A DNA stretch of 64,000 nucleotides, from contig DJKW01000001.1 in NCBI GenBank assembly GCA_002434805.1, positions 5,805-69,804 on the forward strand, given 5' to 3'. Position 1 is the stretch's first letter, and each line of letters begins with the position of its first letter. The notes under the pieces are model-generated. The model was not told the origin of the DNA. It worked only from the letters and a program-made list of their open reading frames with translations, and ran no database searches. The stretch comes from Patescibacteria group bacterium UBA6532. Lineage in GTDB: Bacteria > Patescibacteriota > Minisyncoccia > Minisyncoccales > UBA6532. The position numbers were made by a program, and so were the translations under genes. This document shows positions 8,407 to 63,790 of the stretch, piece by piece.

Positions 8407-10110
8407 TTATTCAATATAATAAATAAATATTGAATAGCCGATTTTAGTTACCGGAGTATAATCATTAAGCCAGTTAAAATAGCCAGACGACTCGTTAAGC
8501 CCTGGTATAGGAATTCCTCTGCCAACCTGGAGAAAGGTGGCGGAAACGGCAATCCAGCCCTTCTGAGGCTCTTCCCAGCTGAAATATTGGGCTTTATCTC
8601 CTAAATGATATATGGGATCAGCACCGCCAAAGTAGGCGATTTTTATTTCCTCAATATTGTTTTCATCTACCCATTGAGCCAGCCGTTTTAAATCCTGGCC
8701 CCAGTCTAAATTAGAGTCCACGGTATAAATATAGCCCTTATCCGGCCCTCCGACTAACTCATTAAAATAAGATAAAAAATGAGGATAAACTAAGGCTACG
8801 CTCGCTCCCTGCCATAAAAGAAGCAGGGCCAAAAGAATGTATTTTATCTTAAGAAAAGGTTCTTTAAGCCAATTTATTGTTACCTTGCTGACTAATAAAA
8901 TTAGAAAAGGAAAGGTGGGCAAAAGATGGCGTACCCCGATATTAAGATTACTGCTTAAACTGGTAAACCAATAAAGGCCGATAAAAGATATCATGGCAAA
9001 TTCCGGGAAATATGTCCTTAACTTTTCTAAGAATTTTCTTTTCCTTATAGACCAGAGAGCATAAAGAAGAGCAGTTAAGGTTAAAATATGAAAAGCCAAT
9101 GGTACTTTTATAGCATAAACTATGGGGAAATAGCTTTTCCATCCTAAGTTAGAAATCTCACCCATAAAATAGGTGGTGTGCCCAAAAGCGGCTCTCTGAA
9201 ATACCATAAAAAGGCCTGTAAAATACTGGCTGTAACCTTGCAGAAATGGATTTTCAGCTGCCCAGAAAATAGGTTCTTTAATAATATCAGGATAGTCAGC
9301 AATAGAAACCTTAGCATCGCTGAGTTGTCTTTCTGGAGGATAATTCCAAACATGGTACTGGTAAACAGGCCCAATAACCAAAAAGCTGATAATAACAACA
9401 AAAATCAGGGTTTTTAAAGCATTTTTAAGACTGCCTAGTTTTATCAGCCACCAGATGATAATTAAAAAGAAGAAAAAAGGAAAAAGAAGAATTACAGAAA
9501 ACTTCAAAAGCTGAGCTAAACCCAAAGCAATTCCAGCTAAGATAATATTCCTTTTACTTTGGTTTTTAAGGGCTTTAATAAAATAATAAGTGGCAATAAA
9601 AATAGCGGCTGCCGCTCCAACGTCAGTGGTAACCAATCTGCCGTGGGTAAGAAAAGTAGGGGAGAAGGAAAAGAGAAATAAAGCAAGTAATGCGCCCTTA
9701 TCTCCTATGAGCTCTCTTGCCCATTTAAAAACATATACTCCAAGGAGAATTAAAAGCAAAATCATTGGGATTCTGCCCCAAAAAATCATTTGATCTGTCG
9801 GGTTGCCGGCTTTATAAAGAAAATAGCTTCCAAATTCCCACTGGCCGTTAACGTCGTCTTTCCAGGCTTTAATATCGGAAGGAAAATTAATTCCATCTAA
9901 GAAAAGCAAAGGGACAGCGGATAGGTCCTTAATTAAAGGAGGGTGTTCTGGATTTAATCTCATATCTTTTTGGGTAAGATAAGAGTAACCAGCTGGCAAA
10001 TGAGCTAACTCGTCCATGGTAAGAGAGTCGTCTTTTATGCTAAAAACCGCCATTGAAAACATTATGACAAGCAATCCTCCGGCAATAATTAATGTAAAAC
10101 GATTAGACAT
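8407..10110 (-). CDS. GT39/GT83-family (ArnT/PMT-like) integral membrane glycosyltransferase
   Basis: About 12 TM helices, with an N-terminal D-E-x-x-H...HPPL loop (MDELAHLPAGY...PEHPPLIKDL). Confidence 0.65.
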   Translation of the reverse strand: MSNRFTLIIAGGLLVIMFSMAVFSIKDDSLTMDELAHLPAGYSYLTQKDMRLNPEHPPLIKDLSAVPLLFLDGINFPSDIKAWKDDVNGQWEFGSYFLYKAGNPTDQMIFWGRIPMILLLILLGVYVFKWARELIGDKGALLALFLFSFSPTFLTHGRLVTTDVGAAAAIFIATYYFIKALKNQSKRNIILAGIALGLAQLLKFSVILLFPFFFFLIIIWWLIKLGSLKNALKTLIFVVIISFLVIGPVYQYHVWNYPPERQLSDAKVSIADYPDIIKEPIFWAAENPFLQGYSQYFTGLFMVFQRAAFGHTTYFMGEISNLGWKSYFPIVYAIKVPLAFHILTLTALLYALWSIRKRKFLEKLRTYFPEFAMISFIGLYWFTSLSSNLNIGVRHLLPTFPFLILLVSKVTINWLKEPFLKIKYILLALLLLWQGASVALVYPHFLSYFNELVGGPDKGYIYTVDSNLDWGQDLKRLAQWVDENNIEEIKIAYFGGADPIYHLGDKAQYFSWEEPQKGWIAVSATFLQVGRGIPIPGLNESSGYFNWLNDYTPVTKIGYSIFIYYIE

Positions 10111-58151: not shown

Positions 58152-58331
58152 ATGGCTTTTAATGAATCTGGTTCCGACAGAGGATTTCCAAGAAAAATGT
58201 ATCAAGGAAATTGGAAATGTTCTGAGTGCGGAAAAGAAATAACAGAGCTTCCATTTGAGCCCTCTGGCGACAGACCTCTTTATTGTAGGGACTGCCACGC
58301 TAAGAGGAGACCTCAAAGATTCGGACGCTAA
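58152..58331 (+). CDS. 59-aa zinc-ribbon protein of the CxxC-x17/18-CxxC type (WKCSECGKEITELPFEPSGDRPLYCRDCH)
   Basis: It is unlisted in the track because it is under 60 aa. It has a strong terminator downstream. Confidence 0.55.
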   Translation: MAFNESGSDRGFPRKMYQGNWKCSECGKEITELPFEPSGDRPLYCRDCHAKRRPQRFGR

Positions 58332-58459: not shown

Positions 58460-59425
58460 ATGGAGATTAGTTTTTTAAAAACTCGCTGCACTCATTGTGG
58501 TAAAACAAAAATGGTAGAAGATGCCGTCTCTGGCGAAATCACTTGTAAAAATTGTGGCTTTGTAATCAAAGAAAAGAAAGAAGAAACAGGTCCTGAATGG
58601 AGAGAATTTCCAGAAGAAAAGAATACAAAAAGCCGTGTCGGTCTTCCATCCTCACTTGCTGACTACGACCAATGGTTAACAACAGACATCGGAAAAGGAG
58701 AAAAAGATGCATTCGGCAAATTTCTTCCTTCAGGATCACAAACACTTATAAGACGGCTAATAACATGGGATGAAAGAAGTAAGCTTCGCGAGCCAGGGAA
58801 AAGAAATTTAATACAAGCCTTTCAATACCTTAGTCGGCTAAAAGACAAGCTTAACCTCAGTGATGCAATAACAGAGAAAGCCGCATATATATACCGAAAA
58901 GCATTGGAACGAGGAATCATTAGAGGAAGATCAATTGAGCTTGTTATAACAGCTTCCCTCTACGCTGCCTGTAGAGAGACTACTACGCCGCGTACATTGA
59001 AAGATTTTTCGGAAGCCGCTAATATCCAAAGAAAAGGTCTGACACGATCATACCGTCTCTTACACAAAGAACTAGATTTAAGAGTACCTGTAGTTACCCC
59101 TGACAGGTTTATTCCAAGAATTGCCAATGCTTGTAGGGTAAGTGAAAAAACTAAGCGCCAAGCATTAGAGATTTTAAAAAAAGCAGTGGAGGAAAGAATA
59201 AGTGCTGGAAAAGATCCAACAGGCCTAGCTGCTGCTGCACTCTATTTAGCTTGTGTACTTACAGGAGAAAGCGTAACCCAAAAAGAGATTGCGGAGGCCG
59301 CTGGAGTTACAGAAGTAACAGTTAGAAACCGATATAAAGATTTAAGAAAAAATCTATCAGATATTCAAAAAATACTAAAATTACCAGAGCAAAATAATAA
59401 ATTCTGGTTGTCCCAAAGATGGTAA
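58460..59425 (+). CDS. Archaeal/eukaryotic-type transcription initiation factor IIB (TFB) homolog, full length
   Basis: N-terminal zinc ribbon CTHCG-x15-CKNCG, B-reader GPEWREF, and two cyclin-fold repeats with RGIIRGRSIE, ASLYAACRE, PRTLKD, GLTRSYR, GKDPTGLAAAALYLA and TQKEIAEAAGVTEVTVRNRYKDL. Each matches archaeal TFB almost residue for residue. Confidence 0.85.
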   Translation: MEISFLKTRCTHCGKTKMVEDAVSGEITCKNCGFVIKEKKEETGPEWREFPEEKNTKSRVGLPSSLADYDQWLTTDIGKGEKDAFGKFLPSGSQTLIRRLITWDERSKLREPGKRNLIQAFQYLSRLKDKLNLSDAITEKAAYIYRKALERGIIRGRSIELVITASLYAACRETTTPRTLKDFSEAANIQRKGLTRSYRLLHKELDLRVPVVTPDRFIPRIANACRVSEKTKRQALEILKKAVEERISAGKDPTGLAAAALYLACVLTGESVTQKEIAEAAGVTEVTVRNRYKDLRKNLSDIQKILKLPEQNNKFWLSQRW

Positions 59426-60153: not shown

Positions 60154-60209
60154 AGAACTTTTCTCCTTGAATAAAGATATAACTATCTTCCTAGAAAGTC
60201 AAATTCTTT

Positions 60210-60275
60210 ACTAAAAAATCGCCTTCCTGGCGACAAGCAGTTGCGGGACCTAGATGACCTTAGAACTATATTTCA
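60210..60275 (-). promoter_or_regulatory. Conserved module, copy K
   Basis: AAAAAATCGCCTTCCTGGCGA...AGTTGCGGGACCTAGATGACCTTAGAAC. Confidence 0.5.
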
Positions 60276-60582
60276 ATATCAAACCAAATACACTTACCTA
60301 CCAAAACTTTCCCGTTTTACTAATCACTTTTATCAATTATTTATTTTACCCCAAAAATTACTAAAATAGTGATTTTTTAGATAGGTAAAAAATTAATTTG
60401 CTAAATAAAATAAAGCAAATAAATAAATCAACAAAGCAACCCTTACTTTTTTATAGAAGACTTTTTGATTGATACCACTTTTCTCCACTTAGCCAACATT
60501 GTAGGATTTGAGGAACATATTCTGCAACTAATAGGAGCTACTTTCTTTTTTAAAGTATTTTTTTTCATAATTTATAAAGAAA

Positions 60583-60831
60583 TTAAATCTTTAATTCTCG
60601 ACCTTTATCTTTTAATAAGATATCATAATAAAGCAAATTCCACAAGGGATACAAGCAAGTATCTCCTTTCTGTAATGAATTTAAAATTTTATCTTTTTCT
60701 ATTGCTCCTTTATTTTTGGCAGATTCCCTCTTAAACCACTTTGATGTTTTTTTATCAACAATATAAATAGCATCTCCTAAATATAGATAATCAACACCTT
60801 TACCTTTTTTAATTTGGACAACAATACGCAT
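60583..60831 (-). CDS. Hypothetical small protein immediately downstream of the radical-SAM pair
   Basis: 82 aa. Confidence 0.4.
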   Translation of the reverse strand: MRIVVQIKKGKGVDYLYLGDAIYIVDKKTSKWFKRESAKNKGAIEKDKILNSLQKGDTCLYPLWNLLYYDILLKDKGRELKI

Positions 60832-60858
60832 ATTTGGTTCTTTATTTATTATAGCAAT

Positions 60859-61854
60859 TTAAATATCGCAACTAAAATCTTCTCCATGAATATCTCCTTT
60901 GGTATACGCTATAGCCCTGCATCCTCCACATATATACTTAAACCGACAAGACTTGCATTTTCCTCTTAGGTTTTCTTTAAAGAATATATTTGTTTTTTTA
61001 ATTTTTTTTAAAATGTTTTCTAGGGAATCAGAGTATAAATTTCCTAGTCTATAAGGAATATAAGCACATGGATAGATGTCTAAATTAGGTTTAACGTAAA
61101 AATTTGCTATTCCCGCAAGACATCCGGCAAACATCTCACCGTTATATATATTACCATACTCCTTTAGTTTTTCTATATATTTTTGATTAAATAAATTAAT
61201 CTTAGGATTATCTGTTGTAATGCCAATTTTATATTTTTCAGATAATGTGTAAATTTTATTAAATAATTCTTTATCCGAAACCTTATTTTTTTCCCAAAAA
61301 GAGTAATTTTTTCCAGAGGGAAGAATATTTTGTAACGCGATACGTTTAAATTTTTTTTTGTCTAAAAACCCAATTAAATCCTCTAAATACCCGATGTTCT
61401 CTTTTTGCACAACACATTTAAAAATCACGTTTCCGCCACCTGATTTAAGCCTTAAAGCGTTTTCTATTATTTTATCAAAAATACCCGCAATGCCCCTGAT
61501 CTTTTCATGAATCTTTTTGGGACCATCAATACTTATTTGTATAAGATCAATTTTAGACTTTAATAAATTATTCAAAACCGAATTATTAAATATCCCATTA
61601 GTTGTTATTGCCCTAAATAAACCTTGTTTTTTCGTAATATAGAGCAAGTCAAAAATATCATCTCTTAATGTTGGTTCTCCGCCTGAAAAATTAATTTCTT
61701 TAAAACCTAACTTTTTAGCATTTTCTATAATTTTTTTAAGTTTACGAAAATCCGGCTCTATTTGTCCCTTATTAATAGCCTCTCTTACGCAATGCTGACA
61801 CCGCAAATTACATCTGTTAGTTATATCTATTTGTAATACCTGATATTTTTGCAT
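60859..61854 (-). CDS. Radical SAM enzyme with a C-terminal SPASM/twitch Cys-rich domain
   Basis: CNLRCQHC (CxxxCxxC), and a C-terminal GCLAG...CAYIP...CKSC...CGGC...C cluster. Confidence 0.8.
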   Translation of the reverse strand: MQKYQVLQIDITNRCNLRCQHCVREAINKGQIEPDFRKLKKIIENAKKLGFKEINFSGGEPTLRDDIFDLLYITKKQGLFRAITTNGIFNNSVLNNLLKSKIDLIQISIDGPKKIHEKIRGIAGIFDKIIENALRLKSGGGNVIFKCVVQKENIGYLEDLIGFLDKKKFKRIALQNILPSGKNYSFWEKNKVSDKELFNKIYTLSEKYKIGITTDNPKINLFNQKYIEKLKEYGNIYNGEMFAGCLAGIANFYVKPNLDIYPCAYIPYRLGNLYSDSLENILKKIKKTNIFFKENLRGKCKSCRFKYICGGCRAIAYTKGDIHGEDFSCDI

Positions 61855-61858
61855 AAAT

Positions 61859-62911
61859 TTATTTATTCAAAAATGCACAGTATGGATCACAAGAATATAT
61901 ATCGCCAGTTAAGTGATATGTATCACAAGGACATCCTCCAAAACAAATGTCATAGTATTTGCAATCTGTTTTAATCAACTTTTTCCTCTTGTGTTTCCAT
62001 TCTAAACCAGTTTTTGAATTCCAAATTTCTTTAAGGGAGTTTTTATACACATTTCCCATTACAAATATATCATCAAAACCATATGGGCAATGTGTTACTC
62101 TTCCATCGGGCCATATGAAGCAACTATATTCTCCACAAGGACAGCCAAAATTATGCGTTATAATAGATTTTTCAATTTCTTTTGCAGATTCTTTAATTTC
62201 TGAAGCATTGTTTCTTTTCTGTATCAAACATTCAATTTTATTTACTTCGGCAATATCCAATATCTTACTATAAATCCTATTAAGGTTTTTATCTTTAATA
62301 AATAATTTATTATAATTAATTAACCCCTGACCTGTAGGATGAAATAAACCAGCCGAAAAAAAAGTTTTTATTTTTTGCTTACCTATATACTTTAAAAAAA
62401 TTAAAATATCCTGATAATTTATTTTTGTTATAGTAGTAGTGAATATGAACGGAAGCTCGTATTCTATGCCCAAACGAATATTCTTTTTTAGTTTCTCAAA
62501 ATTATTCTTGTTAGTTCTACAAAATCTTTTTAATATTTTTTCAGAAAATCCATGGATGCTAATATCAATATGAGACACTCTCAGTTTTGCTAGTTCTTTT
62601 ATGATTGCTTTATCAAGAACAGTAAAATTAGTATTTAAATGTATCCGCATCTTTTTTCTTTCGGCATATCTTAATACCTCCATTATACGTCCATTTTGGT
62701 ATAAAAAAGGTTCGCCACCCGTTATGTTGAGATTATAAACCCTGTTAGCTTCCATCTCATCTATAATATTTTTCACTGTTTCAATATTCAAATCTTTATT
62801 TATCCCTCGATCAACAACACAACAATGCATACAATTAAAGTTGCATTTATCGGTAATTATAATTGAGACCTCTAGAGGAAATATTTGTCTTTTCCATTTA
62901 ATTTTCTGCAT
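61859..62911 (-). CDS. Radical SAM enzyme with a C-terminal SPASM domain
   Basis: CNFNCMHC, and a C-terminal GCPCGEYSC...HCPY...CKYYDICFGGCPCD...CDPYC. Confidence 0.8.
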   Translation of the reverse strand: MQKIKWKRQIFPLEVSIIITDKCNFNCMHCCVVDRGINKDLNIETVKNIIDEMEANRVYNLNITGGEPFLYQNGRIMEVLRYAERKKMRIHLNTNFTVLDKAIIKELAKLRVSHIDISIHGFSEKILKRFCRTNKNNFEKLKKNIRLGIEYELPFIFTTTITKINYQDILIFLKYIGKQKIKTFFSAGLFHPTGQGLINYNKLFIKDKNLNRIYSKILDIAEVNKIECLIQKRNNASEIKESAKEIEKSIITHNFGCPCGEYSCFIWPDGRVTHCPYGFDDIFVMGNVYKNSLKEIWNSKTGLEWKHKRKKLIKTDCKYYDICFGGCPCDTYHLTGDIYSCDPYCAFLNK

Positions 62912-62921
62912 ATTTGAATTT

Positions 62922-63227
62922 TTAATTTATTATAAAATAATCGTTCCTATATGTTTCTGAAAGATATTTCGTTCTATTTGTGTTAATTAAACCAATAACT
63001 TTATATCTCCCCTTTTCTCTATTGCCCACATTATATTTTCTAAAATAATCAGAATTACTTTGGGGTTTGCATTTAAAACTAAACAAAAAAGATTTAACCA
63101 ACTCATTTGTGGGAGAAAAAATCAAAATTTCTATAATCCCCTTCAAGGTATTATTTCTTCTATTAGAAACTCTTAAATGAATGGTTATATCTTTATTTTT
63201 TGAAACTTTCCTAGGATATATACTCAT
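62922..63227 (-). CDS. Hypothetical 101-aa protein 10 nt upstream of the radical-SAM pair (candidate substrate or partner)
   Basis: Position only. Confidence 0.4.
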   Translation of the reverse strand: MSIYPRKVSKNKDITIHLRVSNRRNNTLKGIIEILIFSPTNELVKSFLFSFKCKPQSNSDYFRKYNVGNREKGRYKVIGLINTNRTKYLSETYRNDYFIIN

Positions 63228-63326: not shown

Positions 63327-63668
63327 TTACTTAGGTTTCTTCTTAAATTTATATGTGTAAGCAAAAACTGGCGTATTATTGTTAATCTTATAGGCAGGAT
63401 TATGACGCCTAAATGCTTTTATAAGTTCCTGTCTGTTTTTATATGTTTTATAGTGAGTTTTATCCTTTAGGTCTATCTGTCCGACAGTTGTTATAATAAC
63501 TTTTGTTATTTTTCCGAATCCAAAAATTTCTTCTGTCTGGCTATTTTCAAAAGCCACAACATCGCCTTTTTTTAACTTATGGTCTCTGAGTCTCCAGGTA
63601 CTTATTTTCCCATCAAAAACCTGTGGGACAATACTCTCGTGAAACCCCATTTTTGGCAAATTTTTCAT
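63327..63668 (-). CDS. ASCH/PUA-like small protein
   Basis: GFHESIVPQVFDGKISTWRLRDHKLKKGDVVAFEN...FGFGKITKV resembles the ASCH beta-barrel pattern. Confidence 0.4.
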   Translation of the reverse strand: MKNLPKMGFHESIVPQVFDGKISTWRLRDHKLKKGDVVAFENSQTEEIFGFGKITKVIITTVGQIDLKDKTHYKTYKNRQELIKAFRRHNPAYKINNNTPVFAYTYKFKKKPK

Positions 63669-63676
63669 ATCTTTAT

Positions 63677-63790
63677 CCTACCAAAAAACCGCCTTCTTGG
63701 CGATAAATAGTTGCGGGTCGTGGACGATATTAGAACCTGTTTTTGCTTAAATGAATAAAAAAAGGTTCTTTCTGAGAACATCTTTTTTGG
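63677..63790 (-). promoter_or_regulatory. Conserved module, copy L, the most complete example
   Basis: CTACCAAAAAACCGCCTTCTTGGCGATAAATAGTTGCGGGTCGTGGACGATATTAGAACCTGTTTTTGC...AAAAAAAGGTTCT-TTCTG-AGAACATCTTTTTT. Confidence 0.55.

Follow-up and report, generated by a model that had tools for sequence, protein, structure and literature searches.

A gene for a small peptide of near-invariant core accompanies twin radical SAM/SPASM enzymes in a probable RiPP-like operon of a Patescibacteria bacterium

Pathways for peptides made on ribosomes and modified after translation (RiPPs) that employ radical S-adenosylmethionine (rSAM) enzymes with a SPASM domain are a main source of new peptide chemistry, and substrate recognition in them is usually explained by a RiPP recognition element (RRE) domain. 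Maturases of ranthipeptides (SCIFF peptides) and of sactipeptides carry this domain at their N-terminus. Related enzymes act on proteins: QhpD cross-links QhpC, and anSME modifies sulfatases. Cassettes with paired rSAM genes have reportedly been predicted by Haft, namely SynChlorMet (ScmE/ScmF), His-Xaa-Ser (HxsB/HxsC) and GeoRSP, and the ACGX-repeat system (TIGR04340, rSAM_ACGX) is a further predicted and uncharacterised system. In the PqqA/PqqD/PqqE pathway to pyrroloquinoline quinone (PQQ), a separate peptide chaperone, PqqD, serves the rSAM/SPASM enzyme PqqE (PMC10114670), and in RumC maturation two rSAM enzymes, RumMC1 and RumMC2, work in one RiPP pathway (PMC8188230). Here we analyse a five-gene locus in a 64,000-nt stretch of DNA (hereafter the window) from Patescibacteria group bacterium UBA6532 (assembly GCA_002434805.1, contig DJKW01000001.1, positions 5,805 to 69,804). 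Comparative genomics makes it fairly probable that the last of these genes encodes a precursor peptide, P41, whose invariant core is cross-linked by two rSAM/SPASM enzymes, rSAM-A and rSAM-B, in a RiPP-like operon of an undescribed family.

The genes lie in the following order of transcription, and the gaps between them measure 10, 4, 27 and 14 nt (positions are those of the window; aa, amino acids).

62922-63227, minus strand: S100, a small protein of 101 aa (NCBI locus tag CMI54_05425)
61859-62911, minus strand: rSAM-A, 350 aa
60859-61854, minus strand: rSAM-B, 331 aa
60583-60831, minus strand: S80, a small protein of 82 aa (NCBI locus tag CMI54_05410)
60443-60568, minus strand: P41, a peptide of 41 aa, final gene of the operon

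The original prediction, made from the letters of the window, had proposed all five open reading frames (ORFs), and a check of the ORFs recovered each of them at these positions on the minus strand. It had also seen neither protease nor transporter in the cluster, which the gene content at the locus bears out. Contig NYZL01000050.1 of a marine metagenome-assembled genome (GCA_002687125.1), labelled "Parcubacteria group bacterium", is identical to the window, and the same gene arrangement recurs in at least 17 independently assembled contigs (Tara, JGI, Logan).

The evidence that carries our reading comes from P41 (MKKNTLKKKVAPISCRICSSNPTMLAKWRKVVSIKKSSIKK). Its core, SCRICSSNPTMLAKW (residues 14-28), is internal, contains the only two Cys residues of the peptide and lies between Lys-rich, cationic flanks, the C-terminus reading ...KKSSIKK. 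When small ORFs were listed in the gaps around all cassettes of this kind, the core motif SCRICSSNP[TV][ML]L[AS]KW was recognised in three more distinct small ORFs (loci L009, L013/L014/L104 and L015/L016), all on the cassette strand and directly upstream of a gene in which a GNAT acetyltransferase is fused to an S80 module (GNAT::S80). In L009 and L013 the peptide stop codon abuts the ATG of GNAT::S80; in the window, P41 starts 14 nt after the S80 stop. Both flanks, N- and C-terminal, vary in length and sequence around the invariant core. A peptide gene of this type is thus clustered with the modifying enzymes, as expected of a RiPP precursor, in 4/4 locus types in which the region is covered.

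Between the three distant loci the codons of the core differ pairwise at 11-14 of 45 nt, and every difference is synonymous. These include serine switches between the AGY and TCN boxes (AGT vs TCG/TCT, TCC vs AGT), and the Leu, Arg, Ile, Pro, Asn, Lys and Cys codons vary as well. Mean pairwise aa identity of the core is 0.90 in the sense frame, against 0.26-0.56 in the other five frames. Window and distant loci share 13 of the 15 core residues, whereas rSAM-A and rSAM-B are there only 34-40% identical and S100 and S80 22-31%. At the sequence level, this pattern shows that P41 is under selection for its translation product. Because the substitutions are synonymous in the sense frame only, an RNA or DNA element in place of a peptide is excluded, and Rfam gave no match here; the same pattern excludes the conserved ORFs on the antisense strand (window 60465-60734, plus strand, and others), which are a by-product with aa identity of at most 0.56. 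No NCBIfam or Pfam model matches P41, and no match to the core motif was found in the literature. An additional peptide match, on the high-GC contig L105, was an out-of-frame false positive. The 41-aa ORF had been put forward only tentatively in the original prediction; the recurrence of its core beside the same enzyme pair, with synonymous differences, establishes it as a real gene, and the search for unannotated short ORFs proposed there is what recovered the motif in further cassettes. The substrate had been left unclear, between a flanking protein and a larger protein modified in trans. That part has changed, and on genomic evidence P41 is now the best candidate, ahead of both.

P41's lone CxxC could also be a metal ligand. 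P41 would then be a metal-binding peptide, e.g. a dimeric rubredoxin-like Fe(Cys)4 protein, that gives electrons or metal to the rSAM enzymes, and their substrate would lie elsewhere. The CxxC is indeed invariant, the entire core is as invariant as a structural or metal site, and a leader-cleavage motif is missing. However, there are two Cys per chain only, variable flanks around a short invariant core are typical of precursor peptides, P41 resembles no known family of redox proteins, and an ACGX-like precursor peptide occupies the equivalent position in related S100 clusters (described below). We regard the role of metal partner as quite improbable.

The enzymes belong to the class expected of peptide maturases. 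Both exceed the Pfam Radical_SAM threshold (rSAM-A 84.8 bits, rSAM-B 91.4 bits) and the SPASM cutoff of 21.5 bits (37.3 and 26.2 bits, respectively). The CX3CX2C motif is C23/C27/C30 in rSAM-A, with SPASM Cys at 257, 259, 275, 317, 323, 327 and 345, and C15/C19/C22 in rSAM-B, with the canonical seven SPASM Cys at 245, 263, 300, 303, 309, 312 and 329. In the alignment, CX3CX2C and the seven C-terminal Cys are kept in essentially all seven orthologue pairs, and these conserved columns, with the Pfam scores, confirm the two adjacent rSAM/SPASM proteins that had been read from the window. The two are paralogues (26% identical, E=1e-16), and rSAM-A carries the family-specific motif GCPCGE[YF]SCFIWPDG. 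Neither has an N-terminal extension able to be a recognition domain; the rSAM core starts directly. The nearest full-length solved relatives of rSAM-B are CteB (5wgg, E=2.9e-14), anSME (4k36) and SuiB (5v1q), and solved structures match rSAM-A weakly.

Many rSAM/SPASM models of NCBIfam are matched by the pair, among them GeoRSP, AhbD, NirJ2, MftC, PqqE, PapB, SCIFF maturase, anSME, ScmE/F and HxsB/C, at 50-148 bits, against curated cutoffs of 265-650. The top match of rSAM-A is GeoRSP (115.5 bits, cutoff 400) and that of rSAM-B is NirJ2 (148.3 bits, cutoff 500). Since the scores fall far under the curated cutoffs, rSAM-A and rSAM-B belong to no named family. Profile-based classification had been proposed earlier as the way to expose housekeeping enzymes, and it returned no confident housekeeping assignment. 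The pair could still be divergent AhbC/AhbD- or NirJ-type tetrapyrrole enzymes, or rSAM enzymes for another small molecule, with the small ORFs incidental. This idea draws on the top NCBIfam scores, which include NirJ2 and the heme b synthase AhbD (139.8 bits for rSAM-B, 108.9 bits for rSAM-A), and on the closest matches in genome collections (26-28% identity), which come from Desulfobulbaceae and Nitrospirota genomes. AhbD/NirJ-like proteins are often found in genomes of these two groups. Yet the 109-148 bits reached compare with heme and heme d1 equivalog cutoffs (AhbC, AhbD, NirJ, NirJ1, NirJ2) of 500-650, neither the window nor any sister locus has a heme or siroheme biosynthesis gene, the pair is accompanied by a peptide, S100, S80, a GNAT and a kinase, and the family is extremely rare. 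A housekeeping cofactor role is, in our judgement, very improbable indeed.

The rarity of the family is seen in rSAM-A. At 33% identity or above, it has relatives in 6 clusters among 5.8 billion proteins, and no close relative was obtained from 185,579 species-representative genomes, in a scan saturated by the generic GGEPF pattern. Matches in reference genomes reach at most 28% identity over the full length, two partial ones 34-35% over ~115 residues, and none of them has S100 or S80 nearby. In the sister loci, rSAM-B orthologues are 36-49% identical. For the rSAM-A of L009, the public gene call (8830-9783, 317 aa) starts late and misses CX3CX2C; a TTG at 8740 restores CNFRCVHC.

How does the locus compare with the described pathways? 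PQQ and mycofactocin come closest in logic: a short conserved precursor, an rSAM/SPASM enzyme without fused recognition domain, a small partner beside the peptide, no exporter or immunity gene in the operon, and a peptide much better conserved than the enzymes. The differences are equally clear. The pair scores 92.9 and 91.1 bits on MftC (cutoff 265) and 69.1 and 92.4 bits on PqqE (cutoff 381); no partner matches PqqD (PF05402), and no relation of S80 to PqqD- or MftB-type RREs could be detected. Here there are two rSAM enzymes plus an additional β-sandwich protein, and the core of P41 is internal and contains Cys, whereas theirs are C-terminal Val-Tyr or Glu...Tyr; P41 also lacks the ...GVY end of the mycofactocin precursor. 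With CteB, PapB, RumMC1/2 and SkfB, that is, the ranthipeptide/SCIFF and sactipeptide maturases, the locus shares rSAM/SPASM enzymes acting, as we propose here, on a Cys-containing core, and CteB (5wgg) is the best solved relative of rSAM-B. The two enzymes also recall RumC maturation, which likewise has a pair of rSAM enzymes (PMC8188230). In contrast to these maturases, CX3CX2C begins here at residue 15 or 23, with no N-terminal domain; the scores are 54.6/86.4 bits for PapB (cutoff 340), 76.5 for the SCIFF maturase (425) and 87.6 for StsB (625); and P41 has two Cys only. The Haft cassettes resemble the locus in having two adjacent rSAM(/SPASM) genes, or an rSAM gene and small partners, around a short peptide, and GeoRSP is the top model of rSAM-A; but the pair reaches 49-115 bits on their models, whose cutoffs are 268-400, and the defining partner peptides and proteins are absent here. 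The system appears to behave as an rSAM/SPASM RiPP pathway, yet it falls within no named family. What is new is a precursor family, a twin-enzyme family and two accessory families with no Pfam or NCBIfam model, together with the lack of a detectable RRE.

Comparison with syntenic loci, also proposed in the original prediction, placed the enzyme pair always with S100 and S80, and with the peptide gene where the contig is long enough. rSAM-A, rSAM-B, S100 and S80 stay together in seven distinct locus types despite reordering and domain fusions. In the window the order is S100 - A - B - S80 - P41, with neither GNAT nor kinase; in L006/L007, where the enzymes are 55% identical to those of the window, it is S100 - A - B - APH-like kinase - S80; and in L008, L009, L010, L013/14 and L015/16 (34-40% identical) it is GNAT::S80 - A - B - S100, the S100 carrying a ~60-aa extension. 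Homology of the shuffled modules is significant by BLASTP (E=6e-8 for S80, 2e-8 for S100). As homologues of S80 and S100 occur in every sister locus, the 101-aa and 82-aa ORFs that flank the enzymes are real genes and integral parts of the system, which upholds their earlier listing as genuine ORFs. An exporter, protease or immunity gene was found in none of the seven cassette-type loci. Collectively, the RiPP-like interpretation first offered for the locus is supported by comparative genomics, and no housekeeping classification speaks for another.

Two neighbouring genes recur beside these cassettes. A class-I aminoacyl-tRNA synthetase gene lies directly upstream of the S100/rSAM cluster in three loci (L006:263-1723, L007:511-1953 and L099:1364-3037), all from one sample series (SRR2238xxxx); its product has a MetRS-like N-terminus (...FYITTPIYY.SG.PHIGH), and its position probably reflects inherited synteny, not function. 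In two distinct cassette types (L009:6996-7868, minus strand; L015:1091-1978, minus strand; L016:416-1093, minus strand), an Amidohydro_2-like gene (N-terminus ...VDSH[VA]HF.L.KYK.MI) lies next to the peptide gene on its upstream side and is divergently transcribed; it may be a further accessory gene.

S80 has a modelled β-β-β-α-α fold (AlphaFold2, mean predicted local distance difference test (pLDDT) score 75), followed by a low-confidence tail with the conserved aromatic motif LWNLLYYD. In L006/L007 its homologues are separate proteins, and in L008, L009, L010, L013 and L015 they are the C-terminal module of the GNAT (BLASTP E=6e-8). The S80 gene or module adjoins the peptide gene wherever a peptide gene is seen (four of seven locus types), and S80 is, by this association, a candidate peptide-binding adaptor. 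Foldseek gave no significant PDB fold match for S80, and no Pfam family matches it. S100 is modelled with high confidence (pLDDT 95.4) as an eight-strand all-β sandwich, and its structural neighbours include the Ig-like domain of AlkC, a GH3 FnIII domain and the carbohydrate-binding domain of Wzt. It conserves an N-terminal MSIYP[KR]K, H17, G73-x-Y75 and a C-terminal SETxxxDYF. No sequence match to S100 was obtained in Pfam, NCBIfam or PDB, and none to PqqD even at E up to 5.

The substrate could instead be S100 or S80 itself, in which case the rSAM/SPASM pair would modify a folded protein and P41 would be accessory or unrelated. Both proteins are linked to the enzymes as tightly as P41, and in more loci; S100 has the invariant residues H17, Y75, S90, T92, D96 and Y97; S80 has an invariant aromatic tail (Y69-D70) in its low-confidence, possibly flexible segment; and rSAM-B aligns with anSME over its full length. 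Set against this, S100 and S80 occur fused to a GNAT, a methyltransferase and a winged-helix module, which is adaptor-like rather than substrate-like, S100 has no conserved Cys, clusters with the long form of S100 have their own classical Cys-rich 48-aa precursor, and the core of P41 is far more constrained than either protein. We therefore consider a protein substrate improbable and keep P41 as the favoured one.

The S100 domain extends well beyond these cassettes. An exhaustive profile search of 1.84 billion representatives retrieved 81 clusters, 25 of them at E<=1e-10, almost all with the domain at residue 1 ("MSI[FY]PK...") and with lengths of 100-320 aa. In the long forms a second β domain follows, and the C-terminal module has weak winged-helix character (PDB AdcR/MarR, E=0.002; Pfam TrmB in 5/13 members, MarR in 3/13, and PqqD, marginally, in 2/13 at E=0.04); by hhalign, S80 showed no significant relation to these winged-helix C-termini. 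An rSAM/SPASM gene is present in 10/10 informative contexts of S100-domain genes. In one protein, P0132 (320 aa), an N-terminal S100 domain is fused to a class-I SAM methyltransferase (Methyltransf_25, 75.7 bits), an indication that S100 can bring such a tailoring enzyme to where it acts. Together with GNAT::S80, this fusion fits S80 and S100 as putative recruitment modules.

A related cluster type links S100 to the ACGX systems. Its coordinates are as follows.

L098:6702-9380 and L100:5156-8191 (also in L101 and L102): ACGX-related cluster, RiPP-type gene set

In L098 (NCBI assembly GCA_965331825.1) and L100-102 the order is MFS transporter, 48-aa ORF, rSAM/SPASM, S100-long and a conserved 185/205-aa protein of no family, and an RNPP-type or two-component regulator adjoins the cluster. 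Between the two 48-aa peptides, identity is 73%, and both end ...VHVEKCGVCGSSS (...EKCGVCGSSS...). The long S100 directly follows an ACGX-like rSAM/SPASM enzyme and a peptide ending KCGVCGSSS; a CxxC followed by Ser-Ser is common to these peptides and P41. The enzyme of L098 scores 351.6 bits on the ACGX model TIGR04340 (cutoff 400) and 238.9 bits on SbtM, the thio(seleno)oxazole maturase model (cutoff 350). Since S100 sits in textbook clusters of precursor, rSAM/SPASM enzyme and exporter, it is a recurrent partner of peptide-modifying rSAM/SPASM enzymes. The shared domain does not make the window an ACGX system: its enzymes score 55 and 97.7 bits on TIGR04340, and P41 lacks ACGX repeats, whereas the ACGX-like clusters have one rSAM enzyme, an MFS exporter, regulators, an S100 with middle β domain and winged-helix C-terminus, and no separate S80. 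Long-form S100 found no match among PLSDB plasmids. A third S100 layout (L099:3050-8695) comprises a 105-aa PEP-utilizer swivel domain, an rSAM/SPASM enzyme 31% identical to rSAM-B, a 360-aa protein, S100 (105 aa), an enolase-superfamily (MR/MLE) enzyme, a 327-aa protein and a convergent Amidohydro_2 gene; no convincing gene for a hidden Cys-rich small peptide was seen in L099.

These wider clusters also bear on where the product goes. P41 might be modified as we propose and then exported by a transporter encoded elsewhere, to act as a bacteriocin or signal on other cells, e.g. on the host of a presumably episymbiotic organism. The MFS exporter and the RNPP-type (quorum-sensing) or two-component regulators beside long-form S100 clusters fit such a fate, as do the Lys-rich, cationic flanks of P41. 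It is at odds with the lack of any exporter, protease or immunity gene in the seven cassette-type loci and with a core identity of 13/15 where the enzymes are 34-40% identical, which is unusual for bacteriocins. We think a secreted product unlikely, though it deserves to be kept in mind.

Several points weigh against P41 as the cross-linked precursor, besides the metal-ligand and protein-substrate alternatives already discussed. The peptide gene is known from just four distinct sequences, and a metagenome scan with the peptide alignment retrieved solely the known loci and no new peptide locus. In L007 the motif is absent from the 177 nt after S80, and the contigs of L006, L008 and L010 stop before the expected peptide site; the samples from which L006-L008 and L010 derive are SRR22388141, SRR22388171, SRR22387962 and ERZ27262658. 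Neither a leader-cleavage motif (a GG/GA-type site) nor a protease or exporter was found in any cassette locus. The type of cross-link is not derivable from sequence, and the Foldseek neighbours of S100 are generic Ig/FnIII-like domains (TM-score about 0.7). An examination of the flanking ORFs for an RRE, another suggestion of the earlier analysis, was run with Pfam, PDB profiles, hhalign and Foldseek and detected none: S80 has no match to Pfam PqqD (PF05402) even at E up to 5, its hhalign probability against our own profile of the N-terminal RREs of rSAM maturases is 0.3%, and neither the PDB sequence profile nor Foldseek detected an RRE relation. A winged-helix RRE has the fold β1-β2-β3-α1-α2-α3, and S80 is modelled as β-β-β-α-α; a PqqD-type RRE identity of S80 is not supported.

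The precursor model that we favour would work as follows. P41 would be the substrate, and its 15-residue core, S-C-R-I-C-S-S-N-P-x-x-L-x-K-W, would be modified by both enzymes. In each of them, SAM would undergo reductive cleavage at the CX3CX2C [4Fe-4S] cluster, an H atom would be abstracted from a core residue, and the two auxiliary SPASM clusters would serve to complete an intramolecular cross-link. The likeliest link would be a thioether that joins Cys15 and/or Cys18 to a residue further downstream; the alternative would be a C-C link at Lys27/Trp28. S80 would present the peptide to the enzymes, since it is always encoded beside the peptide gene and is fused to a tailoring GNAT in sister loci, and the S100 β-sandwich may give the rSAM enzymes a second module for docking or scaffolding. 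A separate peptide chaperone and a pair of rSAM enzymes both have the precedents given at the outset, in PqqD with PqqE and in RumMC1 with RumMC2. Sister cassettes would add acetylation (GNAT) or phosphorylation (APH-like kinase), and the window version neither. Because the operon lacks protease, exporter and immunity genes and conservation is far higher in the core than in the enzymes, we infer that the product has a conserved and probably intracellular target; its logic would then lie closer to the cofactor type of PqqA and MftA than to that of a rapidly evolving bacteriocin.

A bolder extension, which we offer only tentatively, is that S100 and a split-off S80 form an unrecognised module for precursor recognition or scaffolding that stands in for the RRE in about 80 clusters, ACGX systems included. 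Here it would serve a twin-rSAM pathway by which genome-reduced Parcubacteria turn the ultra-conserved core of 15 residues into an intracellular molecule, either cofactor-like or specific for a target.

The surroundings of the cassette set it apart from the rest of the window. GC content is 0.28-0.30 across the ~3.5-kb segment and about 0.35 elsewhere, and the segment is flanked on both sides by a ~57-nt imperfect direct repeat whose copies, when aligned, are about 80% identical. The 28-nt core of the repeat has exactly 2 matches in the window and L001 (~74 kb of the genome), with 0 expected by chance. The hemerythrin gene precedes the upstream copy, which marks the 5' edge of the low-GC segment. 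A terminator scan placed a hairpin in each copy. The features are:

63660-63735, minus strand: upstream copy of the repeat
63688-63717, minus strand: terminator-like hairpin on the 5' side, in the upstream copy
63327-63668, minus strand: ORF of 113 aa between the upstream repeat and S100, inside the bracketed segment and outside the conserved cassette
60190-60265, minus strand: second copy of the repeat
60218-60247, minus strand: terminator-like hairpin on the 3' side (GTCGCCAGGAAGGCGAT, then a T-run), in the second copy

The hairpin at 60218-60247 is probably the 3' end of the operon. Bracketing by the repeat is compatible with a segment acquired as a unit, or else with duplication of a terminator. 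The 113-aa ORF has matches solely in contigs of the same species, and a weak family hint (End_beta_barrel, E=0.008). It was also considered as an ASCH-like protein syntenic with that of L007, and this was rejected (BLASTP against the L007 ASCH protein E=0.69; no Pfam ASCH match).

Close by, on the plus strand, the window carries a full-length TFIIB/TFB gene of archaeal/eukaryotic type (58460-59425; Pfam TFIIB 149.8 bits, Zn-ribbon 39.8 bits), adjoined by a 59-aa treble-clef zinc-finger ORF (58152-58331, plus strand). The contig is otherwise bacterial, with DnaK, FtsZ and MgsA in the window and DnaX, RF-1, FtsEX and Obg nearby, and the junctions of the gene are seen again in the independent assemblies L001, L003 and L004. 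The gene could be an inter-domain transfer; a literature probe for TFIIB/TFB in such a contig gave nothing specific.

The cassette thus combines a defined candidate substrate with no detectable RRE and has in its stead two uncharacterised families of small proteins that recur with rSAM/SPASM enzymes. S100, with about 81 clusters and a tie to the ACGX systems, is the wider of these, and characterising it could reveal both a new mode of recognition and new cross-link chemistry. The system is compact, with one 41-aa peptide and four proteins of small or medium size, and is testable by heterologous expression. Keeping five genes for one small peptide is unusual in a genome-reduced bacterium of the candidate phyla radiation, and the near-invariant core of that peptide suggests a conserved physiological role, not that of an arms-race toxin.

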